Part shown: positions 24,788-33,927 of the stretch, in pieces
Position numbering within the stretch: the stretch's first letter is position 1
Layout of the letters: each line of letters opens with the position of its first letter
Origin: Patescibacteria group bacterium
GTDB lineage: Bacteria; Patescibacteriota; Patescibacteriia; UBA1558; UBA10009
Direction of reading: 5' to 3'
Length of the DNA: 33,927 nucleotides
Assembly: GCA_035290305.1 (NCBI GenBank)
Contig: DATDUR010000096.1
Coordinates: forward strand, 1-33,927
The notes under the pieces: generated by a model
What the model was told of the DNA's origin: nothing
Databases searched by the model: none
The model's input: the letters and a program-made list of their open reading frames with translations, nothing else
Program-made: the position numbers and the translations under genes

Positions 24788-25061
24788 TTATAATAATAAG
24801 ATGAAAAGCGATTTATATTATATTTACGTTTTGCTTAGTTTAAAAGATAATAATCTTTATATTGGATGTACTTCAAATTTGGATAAAAGGTTAAAATATC
24901 ATAATCAAGGAAGGGTAAAGTCAACACAAAATAGAAGACCTTTTAAATTAGTTTACTTTGAAGAATATACTGACAAGTACTTAGCTTTTAAAACGGAAAG
25001 GTCTTATAAAACAGCTAAAGGTAAAAGAATCTTAAAATCTAAAATAAAAAATAATACTTAT
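24788..25061 (+). mobile_element. AT-rich GIY-YIG ORF module inserted between duplicated tRNA-Gln 5' segments
   Basis: It is bounded by 31-nt direct repeats (the left copy is interrupted), is strongly AT-rich relative to its flanks, and carries one small nuclease-family ORF. Confidence 0.4.
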
Positions 25062-25076
25062 TCGGGGGTCGTCTAA
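24801..25076 (+). CDS. GIY-YIG nuclease family protein (small, UPF0213-like)
   Basis: 91 aa with YYIYVL...LYIGCTSNLDKRLKYHNQG...YFEE, the GIY/YIG-Arg-Glu pattern. The last 5 codons and the TAA (25074-25076) are encoded by nt 1-15 of the tRNA-Gln gene. Confidence 0.82.
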   Translation: MKSDLYYIYVLLSLKDNNLYIGCTSNLDKRLKYHNQGRVKSTQNRRPFKLVYFEEYTDKYLAFKTERSYKTAKGKRILKSKIKNNTYSGVV

Positions 25077-25135
25077 TGGTAGGACACCAGGTTTTGGTCC
25101 TGGTAATAGGGGTTCGATTCCCTTCCCCCGAGCCA
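25062..25135 (+). tRNA. tRNA-Gln (anticodon UUG), CCA encoded
   Basis: Hand-folded cloverleaf. Acceptor stem TCGGGGG/CCCCCGA with the U1-A72 pair typical of bacterial tRNA-Gln. D loop AATGGTA. Anticodon stem CCAGG/CCTGG with loop TT-TTG-GT. T arm AGGGG-TTCGATT-CCCTT, discriminator G and CCA. Confidence 0.9.
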
Positions 25136-25180
25136 ATAACTTTGAAAATTAATTCAAATCTTTACTAAAGATTTAACTGT

Positions 25181-25648
25181 ATGAATAGTAATATAAAATT
25201 TTCTGAGAACCTTATAAAAGGCAAGGTAGCTGAAGTAATCTTTGAACAGATGTTTAGAGAATCCGGAAAATTTACGATTTTGAAATCTGGTTATGAATAT
25301 ATCTTTCCGGAGTTAGCTCAATACAAACAGTTGCCAAGAGTAGAATTGATGCTTCAGAATATTAAAGATATCCCTGATTTTATTCTAATTTCAGATGATA
25401 AAAGGAAAGTTTATTTAGTGGAAGTAAAATATAGAACAAACTTAGTAAATAAAGAGATTTTAAAAATGGCAGAAAAGACACTAAAAGCATGGAATCACTC
25501 CTGCTTATTTGTCGCTTCACCTGATGGTTTCTATTTTGGACCTTGTAATACCATAGTTAACAATGGCGGCAAAATCGAACTCTTTAAATGGATAAATAAT
25601 GAAATCCAAAACGAGTATCTTAAATTGCTTAAAAAATTTGAAAAATAA
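25181..25648 (+). CDS. hypothetical protein with PD-(D/E)xK nuclease-like motif
   Basis: 155 aa. An N-terminal helix with Glu (KVAEVIFEQMF) is followed by IPDFILISDDKRKVYLVEVKYR (D ... E-x-K spacing). The gene is AT-rich and ends at a strong terminator. Confidence 0.65.
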   Translation: MNSNIKFSENLIKGKVAEVIFEQMFRESGKFTILKSGYEYIFPELAQYKQLPRVELMLQNIKDIPDFILISDDKRKVYLVEVKYRTNLVNKEILKMAEKTLKAWNHSCLFVASPDGFYFGPCNTIVNNGGKIELFKWINNEIQNEYLKLLKKFEK

Positions 25649-25662
25649 AAAAATAATAATTT

Positions 25663-25694
25663 CCGCACGTATTCACTTTACGTGCGGTTTTTTT
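25663..25694 (+). terminator. intrinsic terminator
   Basis: CCGCACGT-(9 nt)-ACGTGCGG forms a perfect 8-bp stem followed by T7. Confidence 0.7.
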
Positions 25695-25723
25695 ATCTCT
25701 TAAACCACTTTTAAAATTTCTTT

Positions 25724-26098
25724 CTAACCTATAGTTGCTGGAGCGGACAAAATGCCGTCGCTTTTTTTCTTAACGATGGTGCCGTGAATTAAACGAAACG
25801 CAGGACGACCTTCCGGTTTATAAATCATCGGCGCGCCGATTAAAGCCTGGCAATGAGTACATTTAAGACCGGGAAAATTGGATGATTTACTGACGGAATG
25901 GGAGCGTCCCGCAAGACTCTCCGGCGCATGTATCCGATTAAGATACAAGCGAAAGAGGTTTCCCGGACCATCTTTTTGATAAAGAAGCAGCCAATGCCGG
26001 CAATGGGAACAATAGATGTTGTAGAAAGCAGAGCTCCCGCCACGAAAGCTCATGTATTTGTCTCGTCTAAGTTTAAACTCTTGTTTGTCTTTTTTCAT
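25724..26098 (-). CDS. zinc-ribbon-like protein with internal duplication, unknown function
   Basis: 124 aa with two CxHC knuckles (YCSHC, KCTHC), each followed 14-17 aa later by FRL. It starts 15 nt downstream of the PilB-like ATPase stop on the same strand. Confidence 0.65.
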   Translation of the reverse strand: MKKDKQEFKLRRDKYMSFRGGSSAFYNIYCSHCRHWLLLYQKDGPGNLFRLYLNRIHAPESLAGRSHSVSKSSNFPGLKCTHCQALIGAPMIYKPEGRPAFRLIHGTIVKKKSDGILSAPATIG

Positions 26099-26113
26099 TT
26101 GAGGAAATGATTG

Positions 26114-27307
26114 TTAAACTTTTAAAATCTCCTCAACGGAAGTAAGGCCGTTTAGAGCTTTGTGGAGAGCGTCCTGATTAAAAACAAGCATCTCTTCTTT
26201 AAGGGCGGCTGATTTTATTTTTTCCAATTCAGCGCTGGAGAGGATTGACTTAACAATCGCCGGAGTCATTTCCAAAAATTCAAAAACGCCGAGGCGGCCC
26301 AGATAACCGCCGTTGGAACATCGTCCGCAACCCCTGCCATAATAAAACTTCAATCCTTCGGTTGTTTCCAAATCAAAACGTTTTTTAATCTCGCTTAAAG
26401 TTTTTTTATCCGGTTCAGCCGCAACGGAACAATGCGGGCAGATTTTTCTGACCAGCTTCTGGGCAACGATTAAGCTTGCCGATTCGACAATGGCGGCGGG
26501 GGAGAGTCCTAAAGAAATCAGTCTTTTGAGAGCCGAATAAACGCCTGCGGCGCTTAAAGAAGCTAAAACCAGCTTACCGTTAAGAGCGGCTTGGACGGCT
26601 AAGTTGGCGCTGGACTTATCTCTTATCTCGTCAATCATGATAATGTCCGGGTCCTGGTTTAAAAAGGAAGATATGGCCAAACTTAAAGTCAAACCCGATT
26701 CGGGATTAATCTGACATTGATTAACGCCGGGCAGACGATAAACAATCCGTTCCTCTACGGTGGAAATGTTGACTTCCGGCCGGTTTAAATCGTTTAAAAG
26801 CGAATAAAGAGTGCTGGTTTTACCGTTGCCGGCCGAAGCAGCAAATAAAATCAAACCGCGCCCCCTGGCGGTTTTTTGTTCCAAAAGCATTGCCAGTTCT
26901 TGAGGCAGGCCCAAGTCTGCCAAAACCAAATTTTTATCGCTTTCGTTTAAAAGACGGATGACCGCCTTTTCTCCCCGGGTCACCGGCATAATCGAAACCC
27001 TGAAAGATATTCTATAATCGGGCGAGCTTACCTTAAAACGGCCGTCCTGGGGCAGGCGATGTTCGTCAATTTTTAAACCGGCTAAAATTTTTATTCTTTT
27101 TAACAAACCGGCCTCAAGCTCTTTGGGCAGGCTCAAAACTTCCTCCAAAACGCCGTCAAGCCTGTGCCGGACTACGAGATTTTTTTCAGTCGGTTCAAGG
27201 TGAAGGTCGGAAGCGTTTTTTAAAACCGCGTACTCCAACAAAGTATCCAGCACCCGGACCACCGGCAGGCCTTGAATTTGTTCGAGCTTAAGTTTATCTT
27301 GGATCAT
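26114..27307 (-). CDS. GspE/PilB-family secretion/pilus ATPase, short and divergent
   Basis: 397 aa with the N2-domain motif RLPQDGRF, Walker A AGNGKTS, Walker B DIIMIDEIRD and the tetracysteine CPHC...CGRC cluster. The Asp box and His box are degenerate (see findings). Confidence 0.9.
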   Translation of the reverse strand: MIQDKLKLEQIQGLPVVRVLDTLLEYAVLKNASDLHLEPTEKNLVVRHRLDGVLEEVLSLPKELEAGLLKRIKILAGLKIDEHRLPQDGRFKVSSPDYRISFRVSIMPVTRGEKAVIRLLNESDKNLVLADLGLPQELAMLLEQKTARGRGLILFAASAGNGKTSTLYSLLNDLNRPEVNISTVEERIVYRLPGVNQCQINPESGLTLSLAISSFLNQDPDIIMIDEIRDKSSANLAVQAALNGKLVLASLSAAGVYSALKRLISLGLSPAAIVESASLIVAQKLVRKICPHCSVAAEPDKKTLSEIKKRFDLETTEGLKFYYGRGCGRCSNGGYLGRLGVFEFLEMTPAIVKSILSSAELEKIKSAALKEEMLVFNQDALHKALNGLTSVEEILKV

Positions 27308-27334
27308 AATATTTCGACGAAATTCATTTAATTT

Positions 27335-27343
27335 ATTATAACA
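27335..27343 (-). promoter_or_regulatory. candidate extended -10 promoter for the PilB-like gene
   Basis: The minus strand reads TGTTATAAT, about 27 nt upstream of ATG 27307. There is no convincing -35. Confidence 0.3.
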
Positions 27344-27351
27344 TAATGTTT

Positions 27352-27426
27352 GCGTATATCTGATGTCCCGCGTTAGCGGGATATGGGCGCAGGCTCGCCG
27401 GAGGCGAACCGGAGCCAGATATACGC
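27352..27426 (+). other. 75-nt GC-rich structured element (three-way junction), abutting the left inverted repeat
   Basis: A perfect 11-bp closing stem GCGTATATCTG/CAGATATACGC encloses two hairpins: ATGTCCCGC-GTTA-GCGGGATAT, and GGCT..CCGG-AGGCGAA-CCGG-AGCC. Confidence 0.5.
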
Positions 27427-27498
27427 TGTTAGCTGATGTAGTTAAAAGTTTTTATCCCGACGTAAAGTCGGGACATTATTTAGGGCTATTTTTTATTT
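27427..27498. repeat. left 72-nt inverted repeat (IR-L) of the cassette
   Basis: Its reverse complement matches 30262-30333 at 68/72 positions by hand alignment. It contains the hairpin TCCCGAC-GTAAA-GTCGGGA. Confidence 0.88.
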
Positions 27499-27499
27499 T

Positions 27500-27528
27500 T
27501 TGAAACTGTACTATGTGATTAATATTAT
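27500..27528 (+). promoter_or_regulatory. candidate sigma70-like promoter for the kinase gene
   Basis: TTGAAA (27500-27505), a 17-nt spacer, then TATTAT (27523-27528), immediately inside IR-L. Confidence 0.45.
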
Positions 27529-27592
27529 AAATTAAAATAAGTTAAAATTCAACCCTCAAAGTTTTTTCTTAGGCTTTAGATTATTTTTTAAA

Positions 27593-28597
27593 ATGACAAA
27601 CATTCCTATTTTTGATAAAATAGCATTAAGCTATATAAAGCCATTTTTTATGAAAAATTATCTATTACGAATCAAAAAAATCAAGAAACAATTCGCTATT
27701 TCCAAAGAAGAGCGTTTTGTAGCCGCTCCCAACGGCACTAATTATAAAGTTTTCCTTTCAAATAATTATGTTATCCGTTTTCGAGACAACAACCCCAAAC
27801 TTTTATCAAGAGAGGCAAATTTTTTGAAACAACTTAATCATGCGCTAATACCAAAAGTTTTGTGGTGCGGAGAAATTGATCAACTATTTTTTATGGTTGA
27901 AAATCGACTTCCTGGGAAAACAATAAATTTAGTTTGGAAAAATCTCTCAGTAAGCAATAAAAAGAATATCATTGAACAAATTGTTGAGTTTTTGCAGTAT
28001 CAGAAAATTCAAACAAAAGATTATGTCTATTCAGTAAAGACGGGTAAAAAATATGAAAGATTTTTGGATTATCTTACAGATGGCTTAAAGCAAAAAGCTA
28101 CTAGTATTAAAAAATTTAAACAAACAAATAAAATAATGGGAGACTTATTATTAATTGTTAACGATCCAGAAGTTAGAAATTTGTTCACTAATAAAACAAA
28201 ATCTACTTTAGTCCACGGCGATCTTATTATTCATAATCTGCTTACAGATGGAAAAAATTTAACGGGAGTTCTTGATTGGGAACTGGCATTATGGGGCGAT
28301 CCTGACTATGACCTTTTTCGCCTCTTTTATTATCAAGGATGTGCGAAAGCCTACCAAGAACAGGGAGTCGATGAAACATTTGAATCTGATTATATGGATA
28401 GGTTAATCGCAACGATTTTGAAGTCTGACTTTATAAAAAATAAAAAATTATTCCAGAGAAAATATCAATTAGTGCGCGCTATTTTTTATCTCAATGCGCT
28501 TTATTGGGCAACAAGCTCAGATAGCCCGGAAAAAAATATCAATGAAATTATAGTACAATGGGATAAAAAAAGCGGGACCAAATACTTGCGTACTTAA
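27593..28597 (+). CDS. phosphotransferase enzyme family (APH/choline-kinase-like) protein
   Basis: 334 aa with the catalytic loop VHGDLIIHNLL and the Mg-binding segment GVLDWELALWGDPDYDL. The gene is very AT-rich. An alternative start is Met20 (27650). Confidence 0.85.
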   Translation: MTNIPIFDKIALSYIKPFFMKNYLLRIKKIKKQFAISKEERFVAAPNGTNYKVFLSNNYVIRFRDNNPKLLSREANFLKQLNHALIPKVLWCGEIDQLFFMVENRLPGKTINLVWKNLSVSNKKNIIEQIVEFLQYQKIQTKDYVYSVKTGKKYERFLDYLTDGLKQKATSIKKFKQTNKIMGDLLLIVNDPEVRNLFTNKTKSTLVHGDLIIHNLLTDGKNLTGVLDWELALWGDPDYDLFRLFYYQGCAKAYQEQGVDETFESDYMDRLIATILKSDFIKNKKLFQRKYQLVRAIFYLNALYWATSSDSPEKNINEIIVQWDKKSGTKYLRT

Positions 28598-28603
28598 TCC
28601 CGC
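28565..28603 (-). terminator. intrinsic terminator of the rSAM-peptide operon, embedded in the 3' end of the convergent kinase gene
   Basis: The minus strand reads GCGGGA-TT-AAGTAC-GCAA-GTATTT-GG-TCCCGC followed by T7. It begins 8 nt after the small ORF's stop codon. Confidence 0.6.
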
Positions 28604-28611
28604 AGGCCGCA

Positions 28612-28707
28612 TTATTTGCAGCCAGTTCGTTTACCCGGGAAAGATGCTCCCGACGGCAGGGGCATAACCCTGGCGATCTTGATCTTCTTGATCTTGATCT
28701 TCTTCAT
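28612..28707 (-). CDS. candidate RiPP precursor peptide, 31 aa (absent from the ORF track)
   Basis: Translation is MKKIKIKKIKIARVMPLPSGASFPGKRTGCK*. An AAAGGAGGTGA SD ends 7 nt (AGGAGG core 9 nt) upstream of the ATG. The ORF starts 16 nt after the rSAM stop on the same strand and is followed by a terminator. Confidence 0.6.
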   Translation of the reverse strand: MKKIKIKKIKIARVMPLPSGASFPGKRTGCK

Positions 28708-28723
28708 CTTGTCTCACCTCCTT

Positions 28724-30178
28724 TCATAATGTACAGGTTTGGCAATTACCTACTGCCGCAGTTCCGTTTGACCGAAGATATTCTACGGCAAGCGCTTCTG
28801 TGACCCTGCGATAAAAATCGCACATGTCGTCAAAAAATTTTTGTTGACCCTCGACCGCTGAGCGAGAGACGACCTCTCTGGTAACATGACATTGTCCACC
28901 ACAGGGTCCTTCTATCTCGCAGCCGGAACAGTACGCATCTGTTCCAGGGAAACGGCTGGCAACTATTTGTACCAAATTACCCCTTTCCTCGAATATTTCA
29001 TCAAAACTGTCTATGTGACCGACTGTCGTGGTAGTGTGGCTACAGATTTTAATACTGCCATCCACATTGAATTCAAGGGTTTTGCCCTGAACGGCAGCAC
29101 AAAACGCGTGATCTCCAGACAAGAGGCTTTCTGATGTCAGATTACGGAATGGAGAATCCCACGTTCCAAAGAAGTTGATACCGTGTTCGTTGGCGTACTT
29201 TTTGAGTCGCATGAGTTTTGCAATTCGCTTCTCAACCGGAACGTGAACTAGACCAACGAGATTATAATCGAAGGCGATCGAAGTCATTTTTCTTTCAATC
29301 GCCAAATCAAGAACGTCTGTGTCGACGAGTTCGAAGTTGCCTCTTGTAACTGTGATGCTGAATCCGTCGAGGGGATAGCCAATCTCTACCAAGAGATCAA
29401 ATTTCTCAAGGATGCGAGCAAATGTTCCCTGTCCGCCCTTTGTTACACGGATGGCATCATTAGCTGTATGGGTGCCGTCAAGTGAGGTTGCAATACGGAC
29501 TTGATACCTCTTGAATATCTCGGCGATCTGTCTAGTCATGAGTACTAAGTTTGTATTAATGGCGAACTCAAACGAGAGATCGTCCATTTTGCTACAGTAT
29601 TCCAACACCCGCTCAATAACGGGCCAGTTGACCAGTGGTTCTGCGTTTCCGAAATGGATATTACCATGGGTTCTTCCTTACTCCCTCGTCAACGCAATGT
29701 ATTGGTCTACACATCGTTTTGCAGTTTTCCAAGTCATGTTAAGTTGCGGAGCCGTTTGTTGATATAAAGGCAACGCCTGGTCAGAGTTGGTTTTGGGCTG
29801 GAAGTGAATGCAGTGTGTGCATTTGAAGTTACACGAATCGCTGATTGCGAGGCCCATTCGATCAACCGTCCGTCGCTCTTGCACCTGGGCGAGTTGCTGT
29901 GTTTTTTTCTCTTGCAGGAATTTTTTCTCATCAAAGCCGGATTCGACAAGAAAAAAAATTTCCGCGAACTCTTGAATAGTACCTTTGGGGTCTTCGTCGC
30001 ACATTTTAGAAACTTCCTCCACAGTAGTTAATTGTCTGAAGAAATCTAAAAATTGAAGACCTTCATTATTGACAATCCTGGGATTGCCATACAGCGTGTG
30101 ATAAACCATTGCCATTTCTGATTTAGAATCAGAAATGATGCGGAGATTCGGGGATAACTGATATCTTTGTTTTTTCAC
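28724..30178 (-). pseudogene. radical SAM/SPASM peptide maturase with N-terminal RRE-like domain, interrupted by one in-frame TAA
   Basis: GTG start at 30178, 8 nt after an AAGGAGG SD. A roughly 90-aa PqqD-like N-domain precedes CNFKCTHC (CxxxCxxC). TAA at 29678-29680 is in the same frame as the downstream ORF (29608-28724), which continues IHFGNAEPLVNW and ends with the SPASM motif CSGCEIEGPCGGQC. The protein would be 483 aa if read through. Confidence 0.85.
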
Positions 30179-30219
30179 GTTTCTATCCTCCTTGCTTTTG
30201 ATGTTAAAGAACTGCTGAT

Positions 30220-30249
30220 ACCTTATCACTACCCCCCCCATTTTGTAAA
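30220..30249 (-). promoter_or_regulatory. candidate promoter of the rSAM operon with a G8 tract in the spacer
   Basis: The minus strand reads TTTACA (30249-30244), an 18-nt spacer containing GGGGGGGG (30239-30232), then TGA-TAAGGT (extended -10, 30228-30220). The match to consensus is weak. Confidence 0.25.
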
Positions 30250-30261
30250 GGGCTTTGTCAT

Positions 30262-30333
30262 AAATAAAAAATAGCCCCAAATAATGTCCCGACTTTACGT
30301 CGGGATAAAAACTTTTAATTACTTCAGCTAATA
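30262..30333. repeat. right 72-nt inverted repeat (IR-R) of the cassette
   Basis: It matches the reverse complement of 27427-27498 at 68/72 positions and contains the hairpin GTCCCGAC-TTTAC-GTCGGGAT. Confidence 0.88.
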
Positions 30334-30341
30334 TTGGATAT

Positions 30342-30381
30342 GAGAACATTAGAATATGAGAACATGAAAACATTAGAACAT
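30342..30381 (+). repeat. five contiguous 8-bp tandem units
   Basis: GAGAACAT TAGAATAT GAGAACAT GAAAACAT TAGAACAT, with consensus (G/T)A(G/A)AA(C/T)AT. The array lies directly outside IR-R. Confidence 0.8.
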
Positions 30382-30414
30382 TGCCAAATCCCGGTTTTTA
30401 AAAAGGCTAATATT

Positions 30415-30423
30415 TGCTATAAT
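30415..30423 (+). promoter_or_regulatory. candidate extended -10 promoter, possibly giving a leaderless mRNA
   Basis: TGCTATAAT, followed by 7 nt (TACCTCC) and then ATG 30431. There is no SD. Confidence 0.3.
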
Positions 30424-30430
30424 TACCTCC

Positions 30431-30784
30431 ATGAGACAACTGGCAAATCTTCTGAAAATCAAACAACTGGCCCTGCCCTTGCTGGCGGCATTGCTGTTTA
30501 ACGCCCTGGTTTGGCTGATTATCACCTGGCGCCTGCCCATCAGCGCCGCCTGGATACCCCTGCACTACAACTCTTACTTCGGCATTGACTGGATCGGCCC
30601 CTGGGCCAATATCATTTATTACCCTTTAATTGGACTGGCCATTATCGCCATCAATACCATCCTGCTGATTGTCATCAACGACAATAAAAACGTTTTGAGC
30701 GTCAGCCTGGCCTGGTCGGCGGTGGTTGTCCAGTTGTTTTTGATTACCAGCTTATTAACTTTAATCATTCACTATTTCAGCTAA
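30431..30784 (+). CDS. small membrane protein upstream of mraY
   Basis: 117 aa with 3-4 hydrophobic helices. Its stop directly abuts the mraY start. Confidence 0.65.
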   Translation: MRQLANLLKIKQLALPLLAALLFNALVWLIITWRLPISAAWIPLHYNSYFGIDWIGPWANIIYYPLIGLAIIAINTILLIVINDNKNVLSVSLAWSAVVVQLFLITSLLTLIIHYFS

Positions 30785-31837
30785 ATGGACTCTTTTGTCA
30801 TCACTAAAATCTTCGCCTTAACGGCTTGTTCGTTTATCCTGGCCATGGCCCTAACGCCGCTTTTGACCCATTATCTCTACAAATACAAACTTGGCAAACA
30901 AATCAGGTTAAGCGAAAAATCGCCGATTTTTTCCAAACTTCATCATAAAAAGCAGGGCACGCCGACTATGGGCGGCGTTATCATCTGGTTGACGGTCTTG
31001 GTCGTGGCCCTGGTTTTTTTCTATCTGGCCAAGCTTTTCCCCGAAACTTTTTTTGCCCGGCTGAACTTTTTAACCAGGCCGGAAACTTTATTGCCGTTGG
31101 GAGTTTTCATCTGCTCGGCCGTGGTCGGGCTGATTGACGACCTCTTGGGAGTAAAAGGCATCGGCCCGAACGGCGGCGGTTTAAACATGAAACATCGTTT
31201 GTTGATTTACACGGCTATTGCCAGCGTCGGGGCTTTTTGGTTTTACTACAAACTGGACTGGGACGTGATGCACGTGCCGTTTCTGGGCAATTTTGAGATT
31301 GACTGGTGGTATATACCCATCTTCATCTTCATTATCGTGGCCAGTTCTTTTTCGGTCAACGAAACCGACGGGCTGGACGGCCTGGCCGGCGGCACCCTCT
31401 TAACCTGTTTTGCCGCGCTGGGCGCCTTCTCCTTTATTTTAGGGAAATATGACCTGGCTACTTTCTGCGGCGTGATTGCCGGGGCCCTGCTGGCTTTTTT
31501 GTGGTTCAACATCAACCCGGCCAGATTCTTTATGGGCGACACCGGCGCTATGTCTTTGGGCGTAACTCTGGGCATCGTGGCCATGCTCACCAATACGGCC
31601 CTGCTCCTGCCGATTATCGGCTTTGTGCTGGTGATGGAATCTCTGTCGGTTATTATCCAGCTTACCGTTAAAAAACTGGGCCACGGCAAAAAAGTCTTTT
31701 TATCCACCCCGATTCATCATCATTTTGAAGCCATCGGCTGGTCCGAACCCAAAATCGTCATGAGATTCTGGGTTATTTCCGGAGTCATGGCCGTGGCCGG
31801 ACTGATTATCTTTTTAATTGACAAAGGCTGGTATTAA
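30785..31837 (+). CDS. mraY: phospho-N-acetylmuramoyl-pentapeptide transferase
   Basis: 350 aa, polytopic, with KQGTPTMGG, NETDGLDGLA, MGDTGAMSLG and PIHHHFE. Confidence 0.96.
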   Translation: MDSFVITKIFALTACSFILAMALTPLLTHYLYKYKLGKQIRLSEKSPIFSKLHHKKQGTPTMGGVIIWLTVLVVALVFFYLAKLFPETFFARLNFLTRPETLLPLGVFICSAVVGLIDDLLGVKGIGPNGGGLNMKHRLLIYTAIASVGAFWFYYKLDWDVMHVPFLGNFEIDWWYIPIFIFIIVASSFSVNETDGLDGLAGGTLLTCFAALGAFSFILGKYDLATFCGVIAGALLAFLWFNINPARFFMGDTGAMSLGVTLGIVAMLTNTALLLPIIGFVLVMESLSVIIQLTVKKLGHGKKVFLSTPIHHHFEAIGWSEPKIVMRFWVISGVMAVAGLIIFLIDKGWY

Positions 31838-31876
31838 CTTAATTTCAAATTTTCAATTTTTAATTTTAAAACTTCA

Positions 31877-33208
31877 ATGGGATTAACTGATTTGACAAAC
31901 AAAAAAATCGCATTATTGGGATTGGGCCTGGAAAATTATTCCCTGGCCCGTTGGCTTTTAAAGCATAGGATTAACTGCCGGTTGACCGTTTTGGACGCCC
32001 GCTCTAAGCGGGATTTAAAAAAATTGCCGGCTGAAAAAATCAACTATGTTTTGGGCAAAAATTACGACCGCGGACTTACGGATTATGACATAATAGTACG
32101 CGCTCCGGGCTATCCTCAAAAAAGCGAAGCTTTAGTTAAAGCCAAATCAGCCGGGGTTAAAATAACCTCGGCCATTAATCTGTTTTTTGAGCTTTGTCCG
32201 ACAAAAAACATTATCGGAGTAACCGGCACCAAAGGCAAGGGCACGACCGCCAGCCTGATTCAGCACTTGCTTAAAAAAGCCGGTCAAAAAGTTTTTCTGG
32301 GCGGCAATATCGGCATCGCTCCTTTTGATTTTATTGATAAACTGGATAAAAAATCCTACGCGGTGCTGGAACTTTCCAGCTTTCATCTTGAAGACATTGA
32401 ACATAGTCCTCACCTGGCCGTTGTTACCAATTTCTACGCCGAACATCTGGCTCCGGCGGATCCGGTTAACCCCAATTACCACCCAAGTTTAAAAAACTAC
32501 TGGTCGGCCAAACTGAAGATAGCCTTTTTTCAGAACTCCGGGGATTTTCTGATTGCCAATCAAAAATTAAAAGCGCGCCTTAAAAATTCCGGCCTCAAAT
32601 CCAACATCCGCTACTTTGGCAAAGCGGACTTAAAATCAAAGCTCTTAGGCGAACATAATAAAGAAAACGTAGCCGCGGCCGTCTTGGCCGCCCGACTTTT
32701 AAAAATAAAACCGGCGATAATCAAGCGGGCGGTCGGCGATTTTAAAGGGCTGGAACACCGGCTGGAGCCGGTTAAAACCGTCGGGGGCGTTAAATTCTAC
32801 AACGATTCCTTCGCCACCACGCCGGAAAGTTCAATGCTGGCCTTAAAATCATTTAAAGAACCGATTATTTTGTTATGCGGCGGAGCCGATAAAAAATCCG
32901 ATTTTAAAAAATTCGCCGCCGCCATAAAAAAAAGAGTCAAATTCGTCGTCCTCTTAAACGGCCGAGCCACGCCGCGGATTAAAAAAGAACTGTTGAAAAT
33001 AAAATTTCCGCAAAATAAAATGAAACTGGTTTTTAACGTTAACCAGGCCGTTCACCAGGCTCAAAATCACGCCGCGGCGGGGGAGATAATCCTGCTTTCC
33101 ACCGGCTGCGCCAGCTTCGGCCTGTTTAAAAATTATAAGGAACGCGGCCGCCTTTTTAAACAGGCGGTTAAAAATCTTAAAAATGAAAAAAAGAAATTAT
33201 TTAAATAA
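31877..33208 (+). CDS. murD: UDP-N-acetylmuramoylalanine--D-glutamate ligase
   Basis: 443 aa with the Mur ligase P-loop GVTGTKGKGTT, plus GLEHRLE and NDSFATTPES. Confidence 0.95.
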   Translation: MGLTDLTNKKIALLGLGLENYSLARWLLKHRINCRLTVLDARSKRDLKKLPAEKINYVLGKNYDRGLTDYDIIVRAPGYPQKSEALVKAKSAGVKITSAINLFFELCPTKNIIGVTGTKGKGTTASLIQHLLKKAGQKVFLGGNIGIAPFDFIDKLDKKSYAVLELSSFHLEDIEHSPHLAVVTNFYAEHLAPADPVNPNYHPSLKNYWSAKLKIAFFQNSGDFLIANQKLKARLKNSGLKSNIRYFGKADLKSKLLGEHNKENVAAAVLAARLLKIKPAIIKRAVGDFKGLEHRLEPVKTVGGVKFYNDSFATTPESSMLALKSFKEPIILLCGGADKKSDFKKFAAAIKKRVKFVVLLNGRATPRIKKELLKIKFPQNKMKLVFNVNQAVHQAQNHAAAGEIILLSTGCASFGLFKNYKERGRLFKQAVKNLKNEKKKLFK

Positions 33209-33927
33209 AATCAAAGAACTCCTGTCTAAACCGTTTGCTTATCAGCATTACCATCATCCGCCTGATTATGTTTTTATCATAACTTTAGGTTTAATTATTT
33301 TTTTCGGCCTGATAATGCTGTCTTCGGCCAGTTCGGTTCAGGGCTTCCAGAAATTCGCGGACAGCTACTGGTTTTTTAAGCACCAGCTGTTCAAAGGGCT
33401 GATTCCGGGCCTTATCGCTTTTTACATCGCTTCCCAGATAGATTACCGCGTCTGGAAAAAACACGCCTTTACCATGCTGCTGGTAAGCGTCGGCCTGTTG
33501 ATTCTGGTTTTTATCCCGGGTCTGGGCGTAAGCTACGGCAAAACTCAAAGCTGGCTGCAATTCGGCCCCGTGGGCTTTCAACCCACGGAGATAGTCAAGC
33601 TGACTTTTTTGATTTATCTGGCCACCTGGCTGGAAAGGCGGGGCGAGCGGGGCTTAAAAGATCCCCAGTACGGCCTGCTGCCTTTTTTATTCGCTCTGGG
33701 CGTCATCAGCTTTTTAATTTTGGCCCAGCCCGATACGGGCAGTTTGATGATTATCATCGCCATCAGCCTGATGGTTTACTTTCTGGCCGGCGCGCCGCTT
33801 AAACACCTTTTGGGCATTATCATCGGCGGACTGCTGATTCTGTTTATCGCCATTCAAGTAACCCCTTACCGGCTGGACAGGATTACCGCCTTTTTTAATC
33901 CGGCCGCGGATCCCCAGGGCATCGGCT
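33183..33927 (+). CDS. ftsW: SEDS-family peptidoglycan polymerase FtsW (3' end outside window)
   Basis: The frame is open from ATG 33183 to the window edge, so it is not in the ORF track. Translation is MKKRNYLNKIKELL...LIMLSSASS...GFQPTEIVKLTFLIYLA...QPDTGSL. It follows murD as in dcw clusters and overlaps murD by 26 nt. Confidence 0.9.
   Translation, partial: MKKRNYLNKIKELLSKPFAYQHYHHPPDYVFIITLGLIIFFGLIMLSSASSVQGFQKFADSYWFFKHQLFKGLIPGLIAFYIASQIDYRVWKKHAFTMLLVSVGLLILVFIPGLGVSYGKTQSWLQFGPVGFQPTEIVKLTFLIYLATWLERRGERGLKDPQYGLLPFLFALGVISFLILAQPDTGSLMIIIAISLMVYFLAGAPLKHLLGIIIGGLLILFIAIQVTPYRLDRITAFFNPAADPQGIG

Follow-up and report, generated by a model that had tools for sequence, protein, structure and literature searches.

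A small peptide gene coupled to an RRE / radical-SAM / SPASM enzyme in Patescibacteria: a putative, apparently undescribed peptide-modification system

Among enzymes of known structure, the closest relative of the one considered here is TigE, a methyl-cyclopropylglycine synthase in which the crystal structure places the RRE, i.e., the recognition element for peptides that are made by ribosomes and modified after translation (RiPPs), at residues 3-85 (PMC10878394). The cyclopropyl synthases are defined by a strictly conserved GYW motif, the tyrosine of which (Tyr339 in TigE) ligates auxiliary cluster I (Aux I); the Y339A, Y339F, and Y339C variants of TigE are inactive, and the TigE/TvgB family acts on repeats in which a Val or Ile is conserved (PMC10878394). 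A second point of reference is given by APH-like kinases, which have been proposed to phosphorylate Thr in RiPP precursors with conserved Thr and Cys residues close to the C-terminal end, as with TsaC and the thioamitides (bioRxiv 10.1101/2020.12.17.423248). Here we describe a locus on contig DATDUR010000096.1 of a Patescibacteria group bacterium (assembly GCA_035290305.1), the 33,927 nucleotides of which were analysed as a whole and are referred to below as the window. At this locus a 31-codon gene follows, after 16 nt, the gene of an enzyme with RRE, radical S-adenosylmethionine (radical-SAM), and SPASM domains, and a kinase of the APH family is encoded convergently. In our opinion, the comparative analysis makes the 31-residue peptide a putative substrate of the enzyme encoded upstream of it, with a probability of about 0.7.

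Members of the candidate phyla radiation (CPR), or Patescibacteria, have tiny genomes with few recognizable biosynthetic systems, and their peptide chemistry is almost unexplored. Most gene callers have overlooked the peptide gene, which makes its pairing with the enzyme invisible to annotation-based mining. The peptide gave no match to the Pfam, NCBIfam, or PADLOC models. Of ten peptide sequences looked up in a collection of 15 billion sequences, three exist there as called proteins, none of them named, and a phmmer scan of 1.84 billion representatives returned four clusters, all of 31 aa and all unnamed. Moreover, we found no report of the core motif, or of such a CPR radical-SAM and peptide system, in the literature searched. 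The peptide-modification system thus appears to be undescribed.

The peptide gene: local signals and conservation

The peptide gene occupies positions 28612..28707 of the minus strand, stop codon included, starting with ATG (28707-28705) and ending with TAA (28614-28612), and encodes MKKIKIKKIKIARVMPLPSGASFPGKRTGCK. The TGA of the radical-SAM gene (28726-28724) lies 16 nt 5' of this ATG. The stretch AAAGGAGGTG, which starts directly after the radical-SAM stop codon, contains a Shine-Dalgarno core GGAGG (28717..28721, minus strand) situated 9 nt 5' of the ATG. On the other side of the gene, an intrinsic terminator (28565..28603, minus strand) consists of a hairpin at 28572-28603, beginning 8 nt past the peptide TAA, and a T7 run (TTTTTTT) at 28565-28571. 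Of the 14 pairs of the hairpin, 6 are G-C, and its loop measures 4 nt; its folding energy of -22 kcal/mol (z = -4.2) was equalled by 0 of 200 shuffles, and in 8 of the 14 pairs compensatory changes keep the pairing across 14 loci. The peptide gene is attached, transcriptionally and translationally, to the gene of the RRE / radical-SAM / SPASM enzyme. The hairpin overlaps the 3' end of the convergent kinase gene (final codons and stop), so that both transcripts, that of the peptide and radical-SAM genes and that of the kinase, probably terminate at it. The conserved C-terminal tail of the kinase (..KKSGxKYLxT) is partly encoded by the conserved RNA stem, a case of dual constraint.

It should be noted that a 31-codon open reading frame (ORF) is by itself weak evidence, because 78 ORFs of at least 25 aa overlap positions 25000-33927. 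The remaining evidence far exceeds chance: a search of both strands of the 34-kb window for GGAGG-N4-10-ATG gives only three sites, the start of the peptide gene among them, and the ORF is conserved across lineages with the substitution pattern of a coding gene, as shown below. A scan of the whole window found no second copy of the peptide. Within the gene, a 15-nt tandem repeat encodes the KKIKI duplication (KKIKI-KKIKI).

Related loci, which are designated by L-numbers (L004, L016, etc.), comprise genome contigs, metagenome contigs, and exact-protein look-ups. All 16 of the other distinct family sequences that extend beyond the radical-SAM stop codon have a homologous ORF after it, and this ORF is found as well in 5 further contigs, which are duplicates or same-species copies. 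The sequence of L015 is too short for a judgement. Across the loci with the peptide ORF, the identity of the enzyme to that of the window ranges from 34 to 86%. L014, which has an enzyme identity of 38% and a GC content of 64%, is without a GKRTxC-type ORF and probably stands outside the family. The related ORFs have nearly all 31 codons and mostly come with a GGAGG-type Shine-Dalgarno sequence and a hairpin/T-run terminator.

The consensus of the peptide family is MKKIxIKKIKIxKVxPMxSGxxxxG[KR]RTxCK. Representative members are the peptides of L004 (MKKIVIKKIKIKKVKPLLSGTSSTGKRTSCK), L094 (MKRIDIQSITIAEVKPMTPSIAMAGKRTGCK), L089 (Taylorbacteria, 53% enzyme identity; MKIKTKKIRISKLTPPRGGSEHFGRRTSCK), L092 (50% enzyme identity; MIKIAAAVLRPIAKPPTSSASEGKRTSCK), and L016 (34% enzyme identity, GC 28%, UGA a sense codon; MKKVRSEKVVCMAGKRTNCCH). 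Every locus retains the C-terminal G-[KR]-R-T-x-C, with K following at the end of the 31-residue forms, whereas the KI repeat of the N-terminal part is lost in the distant members L016 and L092. Each 31-residue peptide contains one Cys, for which no acidic partner is conserved. We propose to divide the peptide into a Lys/Ile leader (residues 1 to ~14), a variable linker (15-24), and an invariant core GKRTxCK (25-31). A reading of SGxxxxGK(R)T as a Walker-A motif, or P-loop, was considered and rejected: L016, L092, and L094 have not kept the upstream Gly, and the extra Arg breaks the motif.

L016 (metagenome contig Ga0247608_10008185) is the most distant member of the family and differs from the others in several respects. 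The host has a GC content of 28%, and long ORFs show only with UGA as a sense codon (table 25). The peptide MKKVRSEKVVCMAGKRTNCCH is shortened to 21 residues with three Cys, and a convergent 398-aa membrane protein stands in the place of the kinase.

Selection was assessed in 13 distinct 31-codon genes, with the ratio of non-synonymous to synonymous substitution rates (dN/dS) calculated by the Nei-Gojobori method. Pairwise differences at codon positions 1, 2, and 3 number 670, 462, and 1331, respectively, i.e., variation at the third position exceeds that at either of the others by a factor of 2-3, and the median dN/dS is 0.19. In the codons of G25, K26, R27, T28, C30, and K31, 30-53 synonymous pairwise differences are accompanied by 0 non-synonymous ones.

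These data leave hardly any room for a non-coding region, in which the 3' untranslated region of the radical-SAM gene and its terminator would contain an ORF by chance. Short chance ORFs are abundant, to be sure, most gene callers skipped this one, and 7 of the 10 peptides looked up are missing from the 15-billion-protein collection. Yet the frame, the 31-codon length, the start, the position of the stop, and the Shine-Dalgarno sequence are all conserved, and the amino-acid motif survives in a locus with an enzyme identity of 34%, a GC content of 28%, and a different genetic code. The non-coding reading fails because of the codon-position bias and the dN/dS value. As judged from sequence comparison, the small ORF is protein-coding and under purifying selection, and the peptide gene is physically coupled to the radical-SAM gene across CPR lineages in which the other neighbours vary.

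The initial annotation had described the ORF as the precursor partner of the upstream maturase. Its coordinates, the Shine-Dalgarno sequence, the 16-nt gap, and the hairpin with T7 are all confirmed on the sequence; the precursor/maturase interpretation gains support from a small ORF conserved at the homologous loci (16 of 16 others) and from conservation that acts at the protein level, beyond that of the nucleotide sequence; and the view that the peptide belongs to no named family agrees with the Pfam and NCBIfam searches and with the nameless entries in the protein collections.

The distribution of the module, which extends over Kuenen-, Taylor-, Wolfe-, and Buchananbacteria and a lineage with recoded UGA, is unlike that of a strain-specific bacteriocin. 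Together, the more than 200 enzyme clusters and the invariant seven-residue core imply one conserved molecular function.

The RRE / radical-SAM / SPASM enzyme and its null alleles

The maturase gene (28724..30178, minus strand) has 484 codons, one of them an in-frame TAA. Its GTG start at 30178 is preceded by an AAGGAGG site of its own and matches the start of the homologues. The protein matches PF04055 (E = 1.9e-12) and contains the CX3CX2C motif as CNFKCTHC, with C116, C120, and C123 invariant among 19 homologues. The 7-Cys SPASM motif, tested as the pattern C-x13-G-x4-C ... CxxCx5Cx3C ... C, is likewise invariant in these homologues (C360, G374, C379, C417, C420, C426, C430, and C453). The family comprises 207 homologous protein clusters, and every cluster with a named taxon belongs to Patescibacteria. 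Matches to NCBIfam models of RiPP maturases (PapB, RumMC, QhpD, CcpM, SCIFF) all lie far under the cut-offs. The enzyme scores 91.1 bits with the PapB model (cut-off 340), 88.1 bits with the model of the sactipeptide maturase RumMC (cut-off 720), and 75.6 bits with the SCIFF-maturase model TIGR03974 (cut-off 425).

An AlphaFold model was obtained for an intact homologue, P0001, which is 86% identical to the enzyme of the window (predicted local distance difference test score, pLDDT, 82.7). In this model, the N-terminal domain consists of strands at 5-37, three helices at 38-73, and a strand at 77-79, and is followed by a helix at 85-100; full-length alignment with TigE predicts that it is a winged-helix RRE. 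The top Foldseek match is TigE (8VPO), with template-modelling (TM) scores of 0.76/0.82 over 474 columns at an identity of ~21%, and the next matches are CteB, then ChlB, SuiB, and anSME. A sequence profile search of the PDB ranks the two leading relatives in the same order (TigE, E = 6e-58; CteB, E = 1.5e-20). The presence of RRE, radical-SAM, and SPASM parts in the upstream enzyme, which the initial annotation had asserted, is thus borne out by the invariant motifs and the TigE-like model, and the in-frame TAA it had pointed out is real, as discussed below.

The G338-Y339-W340 of TigE aligns to G338-T339-W340 of the maturase, and GTW is invariant in the family. By sequence, the enzyme clade stands as a sister group beside the cyclopropyl synthases but does not carry their GYW signature. 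Because a Thr replaces the ligating Tyr, the enzyme would be left with a three-Cys Aux I site. The clade neighbours the only known peptide cyclopropyl synthases while lacking their essential Tyr, and its reaction would reveal the effect of such a ligand switch.

The relationship to TigE raises the question of whether the peptide could be a substrate of the enzyme for a different reaction, namely TigE-like C-C or cyclopropane chemistry on the Ile/Val residues of the KI repeat or a Cys-independent radical reaction in the core (epimerization, or a change to Lys, Arg, or Thr), in which case GKRTxCK would be a tail for recognition or for the kinase. By a wide margin, TigE is the closest solved relative, and the substrates of TigE and TvgB are, as stated above, repeats with conserved Val or Ile; here the KKIKI unit is a tandem duplication, and changes at I4, I6, I9, I11, and V14 are mostly synonymous or conservative. 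Nevertheless, we regard such chemistry as unlikely: the Tyr that is essential in GYW is an invariant Thr in this family, the KI repeat has been lost in L016 and L092 where GKRTxC never has, and the peptide is devoid of a T-[VI]-G type motif.

The in-frame TAA is codon 168 of the maturase (29678..29680, minus strand), which is CAA (Gln) in homologues (REQGRTHG). Three contigs from other samples, L100-L102, are >99.9% identical to the window over the compared 2.9-3.2 kb and carry CAA. Between the window and L100 or L101 there are just two differences, at 29680 (CAA vs TAA) and at 29688 (Met in place of the Thr165 of the window), and L102 has one difference beyond these two; L099 also carries TAA at codon 168. 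Because the near-identical contigs have CAA, the TAA of the window is, at the level of sequence, a strain-level null allele, and the strain probably makes the peptide without radical-SAM modification.

Lesions of the radical-SAM gene recur in the family. In L093, which belongs to the species of the window, two additional A residues in an A-run shift the frame; L011 has a TAA at a Gln/Glu position; L012 has lost 1 nt in the first Cys codon of CX3CX2C, with a resulting frameshift; and in L097/L098 a +1 insertion at Trp150 shifts the frame of a protein that occurs on 13 contigs. Together with the TAA of the window, these amount to 5 independent alleles in 4 lineages, two of them CAA/GAA-to-TAA stops and three frameshifts, and the species of the window has two different null alleles along with intact ones. 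The recurrence suggests relaxed selection on the enzyme or on/off variation of it. Programmed recoding of TAA, prompted by the TAA in L011, was considered and rejected, because contigs >99.9% identical to the window have CAA, the peptide and kinase genes themselves end in TAA, and other lineages show frameshifts, not stops.

The convergent kinase and the surrounding sequence

The only other gene conserved alongside the radical-SAM and peptide pair is that of an APH-family kinase of 315 aa (27650..28597, plus strand; PF01636, E = 1.3e-17), the remaining flanking genes varying from locus to locus. Wherever a distinct locus reaches far enough downstream, L016 excepted, the kinase gene is convergent and its stop lies 14-98 nt from that of the peptide. 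The size of the kinase family (226 clusters) matches that of the radical-SAM family, and for many kinase and radical-SAM clusters the longest contigs are of equal size. Its HGDxxxxN and DWE motifs are invariant, for which reason the kinase looks active as far as sequence can tell.

Could the kinase be the primary modifier? In such a pathway, as in class V lanthipeptides and thioamitides, phosphorylation of Thr28 and elimination would give dehydrobutyrine, addition of Cys30 would close a methyllanthionine-type T-x-C ring, and the radical-SAM enzyme would carry out a different, secondary step. The co-conservation of the kinase and its intact catalytic motifs accord with this, as do the invariance of Thr28 and Cys30, the position of Thr28 after two basic residues, and the precedent of TsaC and cacaoidin-type clusters. 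We nonetheless consider it quite unlikely. No conserved protease, exporter, lyase, or cyclase gene was found in the surveyed neighbourhoods; a HopA1-like gene (PF17914) in particular is absent from the 7 neighbourhoods with Pfam calls and from the window. Moreover, L016 has the radical-SAM enzyme and the peptide without the kinase, and the model of the kinase shows a generic APH fold only, matching small-molecule APH enzymes alone and those weakly (TM ~0.5).

The kinase-peptide-radical-SAM module of the window is bracketed by an ~80-nt inverted repeat with arms 91-96% identical. Arm 1 (27419..27498, plus strand) lies upstream of the kinase gene and arm 2 (30262..30341, minus strand) upstream of the radical-SAM gene, each in a divergent intergenic region and facing into the module. 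Each arm has a hairpin, TCCCGAC-GTAAA-GTCGGGA, with a T-rich tail. The window contains 2 copies where 0 are expected, and among the family loci the repeat is present on both flanks only in the species of the window and in L012. A search of Rfam with the repeat gave no significant match. A family-wide regulatory RNA of the radical-SAM and kinase genes was rejected on account of this lineage-specific occurrence and the Rfam result. The repeat, a possible part of the module, could be a lineage-specific promoter/operator or the leftover ends of a mobile cassette.

The repeat also leaves traces in gene calls. In related contigs, a 46-aa ORF has been called over one arm (27363-27503, plus strand), and over the other the radical-SAM ORF has been extended by 57 codons (30179-30373, minus strand), which yields 541-aa calls; the shared 'peptide' ..KSFYPDVKSGHYLGLFFI.. 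is a by-product of the repeat. Abutting arm 2, at 30340-30381, are about 5 copies of the 8-nt unit ATGAGAAC (plus strand), which lie between the radical-SAM gene and a divergent 117-aa membrane ORF (30431-30784).

Two further features of the window are recorded here. A 91-aa GIY-YIG-type ORF (24801-25076; Pfam call on the identical gene of L099) ends within the start of tRNA-Gln(UUG) at 25062-25135, and it lies in a stretch of low GC content (~28-35%) against 45-50% in the flanks. A PilB/GspE-type ATPase of 397 aa (26114-27307, minus strand) aligns from about position 100-180 of full-length models, and hence is without the usual N-terminal domain.

Proposed chemistry and comparison with known systems

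Our preferred explanation, in which the peptide is a substrate of the adjoining enzyme, may be elaborated as follows. The alternating Lys/Ile(Val) N-terminus (residues 1 to ~14) would act as a leader, docking as a β-strand on the winged-helix RRE, so that the invariant C-terminal segment G-[KR]-R-T-x-C-K could enter the active site. There the thiolate of Cys30 would bind the open iron site of Aux I; such binding is probable because Aux I has three Cys ligands only and a Thr at the position of the Tyr of TigE. Abstraction of a hydrogen by the 5'-deoxyadenosyl radical would then allow Cys30 to be joined to a nearby carbon, most likely one of Thr28, to form a small thioether ring. The APH-family kinase would probably phosphorylate the peptide, with Thr28 as the obvious acceptor, or its product, by analogy with TsaC in the thioamitides. 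The product may act inside the cell, because no protease or exporter is conserved with the module. In sum, the chemistry we infer is one cross-link at Cys30, probably, with phosphorylation of Thr28 a possibility; that the cross-link reaction is specifically a thioether formation at Cys30 is put forward tentatively, at somewhat less than even odds, what remains of the probability being shared by TigE-like C-C chemistry, kinase-led dehydration, and a role of the peptide other than that of a substrate.

Several observations weigh against this explanation or parts of it. The closest characterized enzyme, TigE, is a cyclopropyl synthase, which forms C-C bonds on Ile and not thioethers, and the NCBIfam models of thioether maturases are, as noted above, far from being reached. 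Many antimicrobial RiPPs show the opposite of the pattern seen here, in which the core is invariant and the N-terminus variable, and the C-terminal motif could be a recognition element instead of the reaction site. Since L016 is without the kinase, phosphorylation is not obligatory for the radical-SAM and peptide pair. Finally, the peptide ORF is intact wherever the region is present, despite the 5 broken alleles of the radical-SAM gene, and the peptide may thus have a role independent of the enzyme.

The last point would be explained if the product of the ORF were a small, basic, and conserved protein (such as a regulator, nucleic-acid binder, or partner of the kinase) that is co-transcribed with the radical-SAM gene without being a substrate of its product. 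The invariant core would fit a defined binding function, and the lack of a conserved protease or exporter would be in keeping with it. We hold this to be very unlikely: the adjacency to an RRE-bearing maturase persists down to 34% identity in unrelated neighbourhoods, as is typical of enzyme-substrate pairs; the peptide occurs nowhere else in the window; and all 4 of the representative clusters found among the 1.84 billion proteins are stand-alone 31-residue peptides.

A wider and rather doubtful proposal is that a CPR-specific three-gene module makes a small, intracellular, peptide-derived, and possibly phosphorylated cofactor or signal by undescribed radical chemistry at T-x-C. The recurrent null alleles would in that case represent population-level on/off variation of a function. 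A peptide of 31 residues with only one Cys and one conserved Thr, together with a null allele that occurs naturally, makes for a tractable system.

A comparison with defence systems yielded weak generic matches only among the PADLOC models, to pVip (5.8e-07, by way of the radical-SAM core) and to PD-T4-6 (7e-05, by way of the kinase). The PqqA/PqqE/PqqD and MftA/MftB/MftC systems share with the present one a very short precursor with an invariant C-terminal motif, an RRE-dependent radical-SAM/SPASM enzyme, the lack of a dedicated exporter, and conservation throughout a lineage as opposed to single strains. They differ in that the PqqE and MftC models are absent among the 25 NCBIfam matches listed for the maturase, no peptidase or downstream tailoring genes accompany the locus, and GKRTxCK is unrelated to E-x3-Y or GVY. 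The frequency with which the enzyme has null alleles speaks against a cofactor that is essential.

The TsaC/LxmK-type systems of thioamitides and class V lanthipeptides likewise combine a PF01636 phosphotransferase with a short peptide that has Thr and Cys close to its C-terminus. Here, in contrast, neither a HopA1-like partner nor a cysteine decarboxylase or cyclase is present, the C-terminal residue is not the Cys, and the kinase, which has a radical-SAM enzyme as its partner, is encoded convergently.

In CteB, the Aux I site binds the substrate Cys. The ranthipeptide/SCIFF systems (CteB-CteA, 5WGG; PapB-PapA) and the sactipeptide systems have in common with the locus of the window an enzyme built of RRE, radical-SAM, and SPASM domains, its Aux I site with three Cys ligands, and a precursor Cys (here the conserved and presumably essential Cys30) close to a Thr; CteB is the second-best structural match of the enzyme, and the PapB, RumMC, and SCIFF models are among its best NCBIfam matches. 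Unlike these systems, the present one reaches the cut-off of none of the models and has one precursor Cys where they have several, and its peptide is without the CX3D/E repeats, the six-Cys pattern, and a conserved acidic acceptor.

The likeness to TigE/TvgB consists in the architecture of the enzyme, in a short precursor gene adjoining the enzyme gene, and possibly in a precursor with a short Ile/Val-rich repeat. The KKIKI duplication, which has conserved Ile/Val, is not a T-V/I-G motif (TVGG, TIGSVS) and is lost in L016 and L092. TigE and TvgB carry GYW (RadicalSAM.org cluster 1-1-201), whereas the present family, at ~21% identity, carries an invariant GTW; it is further distinguished by an invariant, single-copy GKRTxCK tail, by the co-conserved kinase, and by its CPR hosts. 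Compared with all these systems, the one described here is a radical-SAM/SPASM RiPP-type pair set apart by its spread within the CPR, its single-Cys core, its APH kinase, and an enzyme clade that has dispensed with the Tyr of the cyclopropyl synthases.

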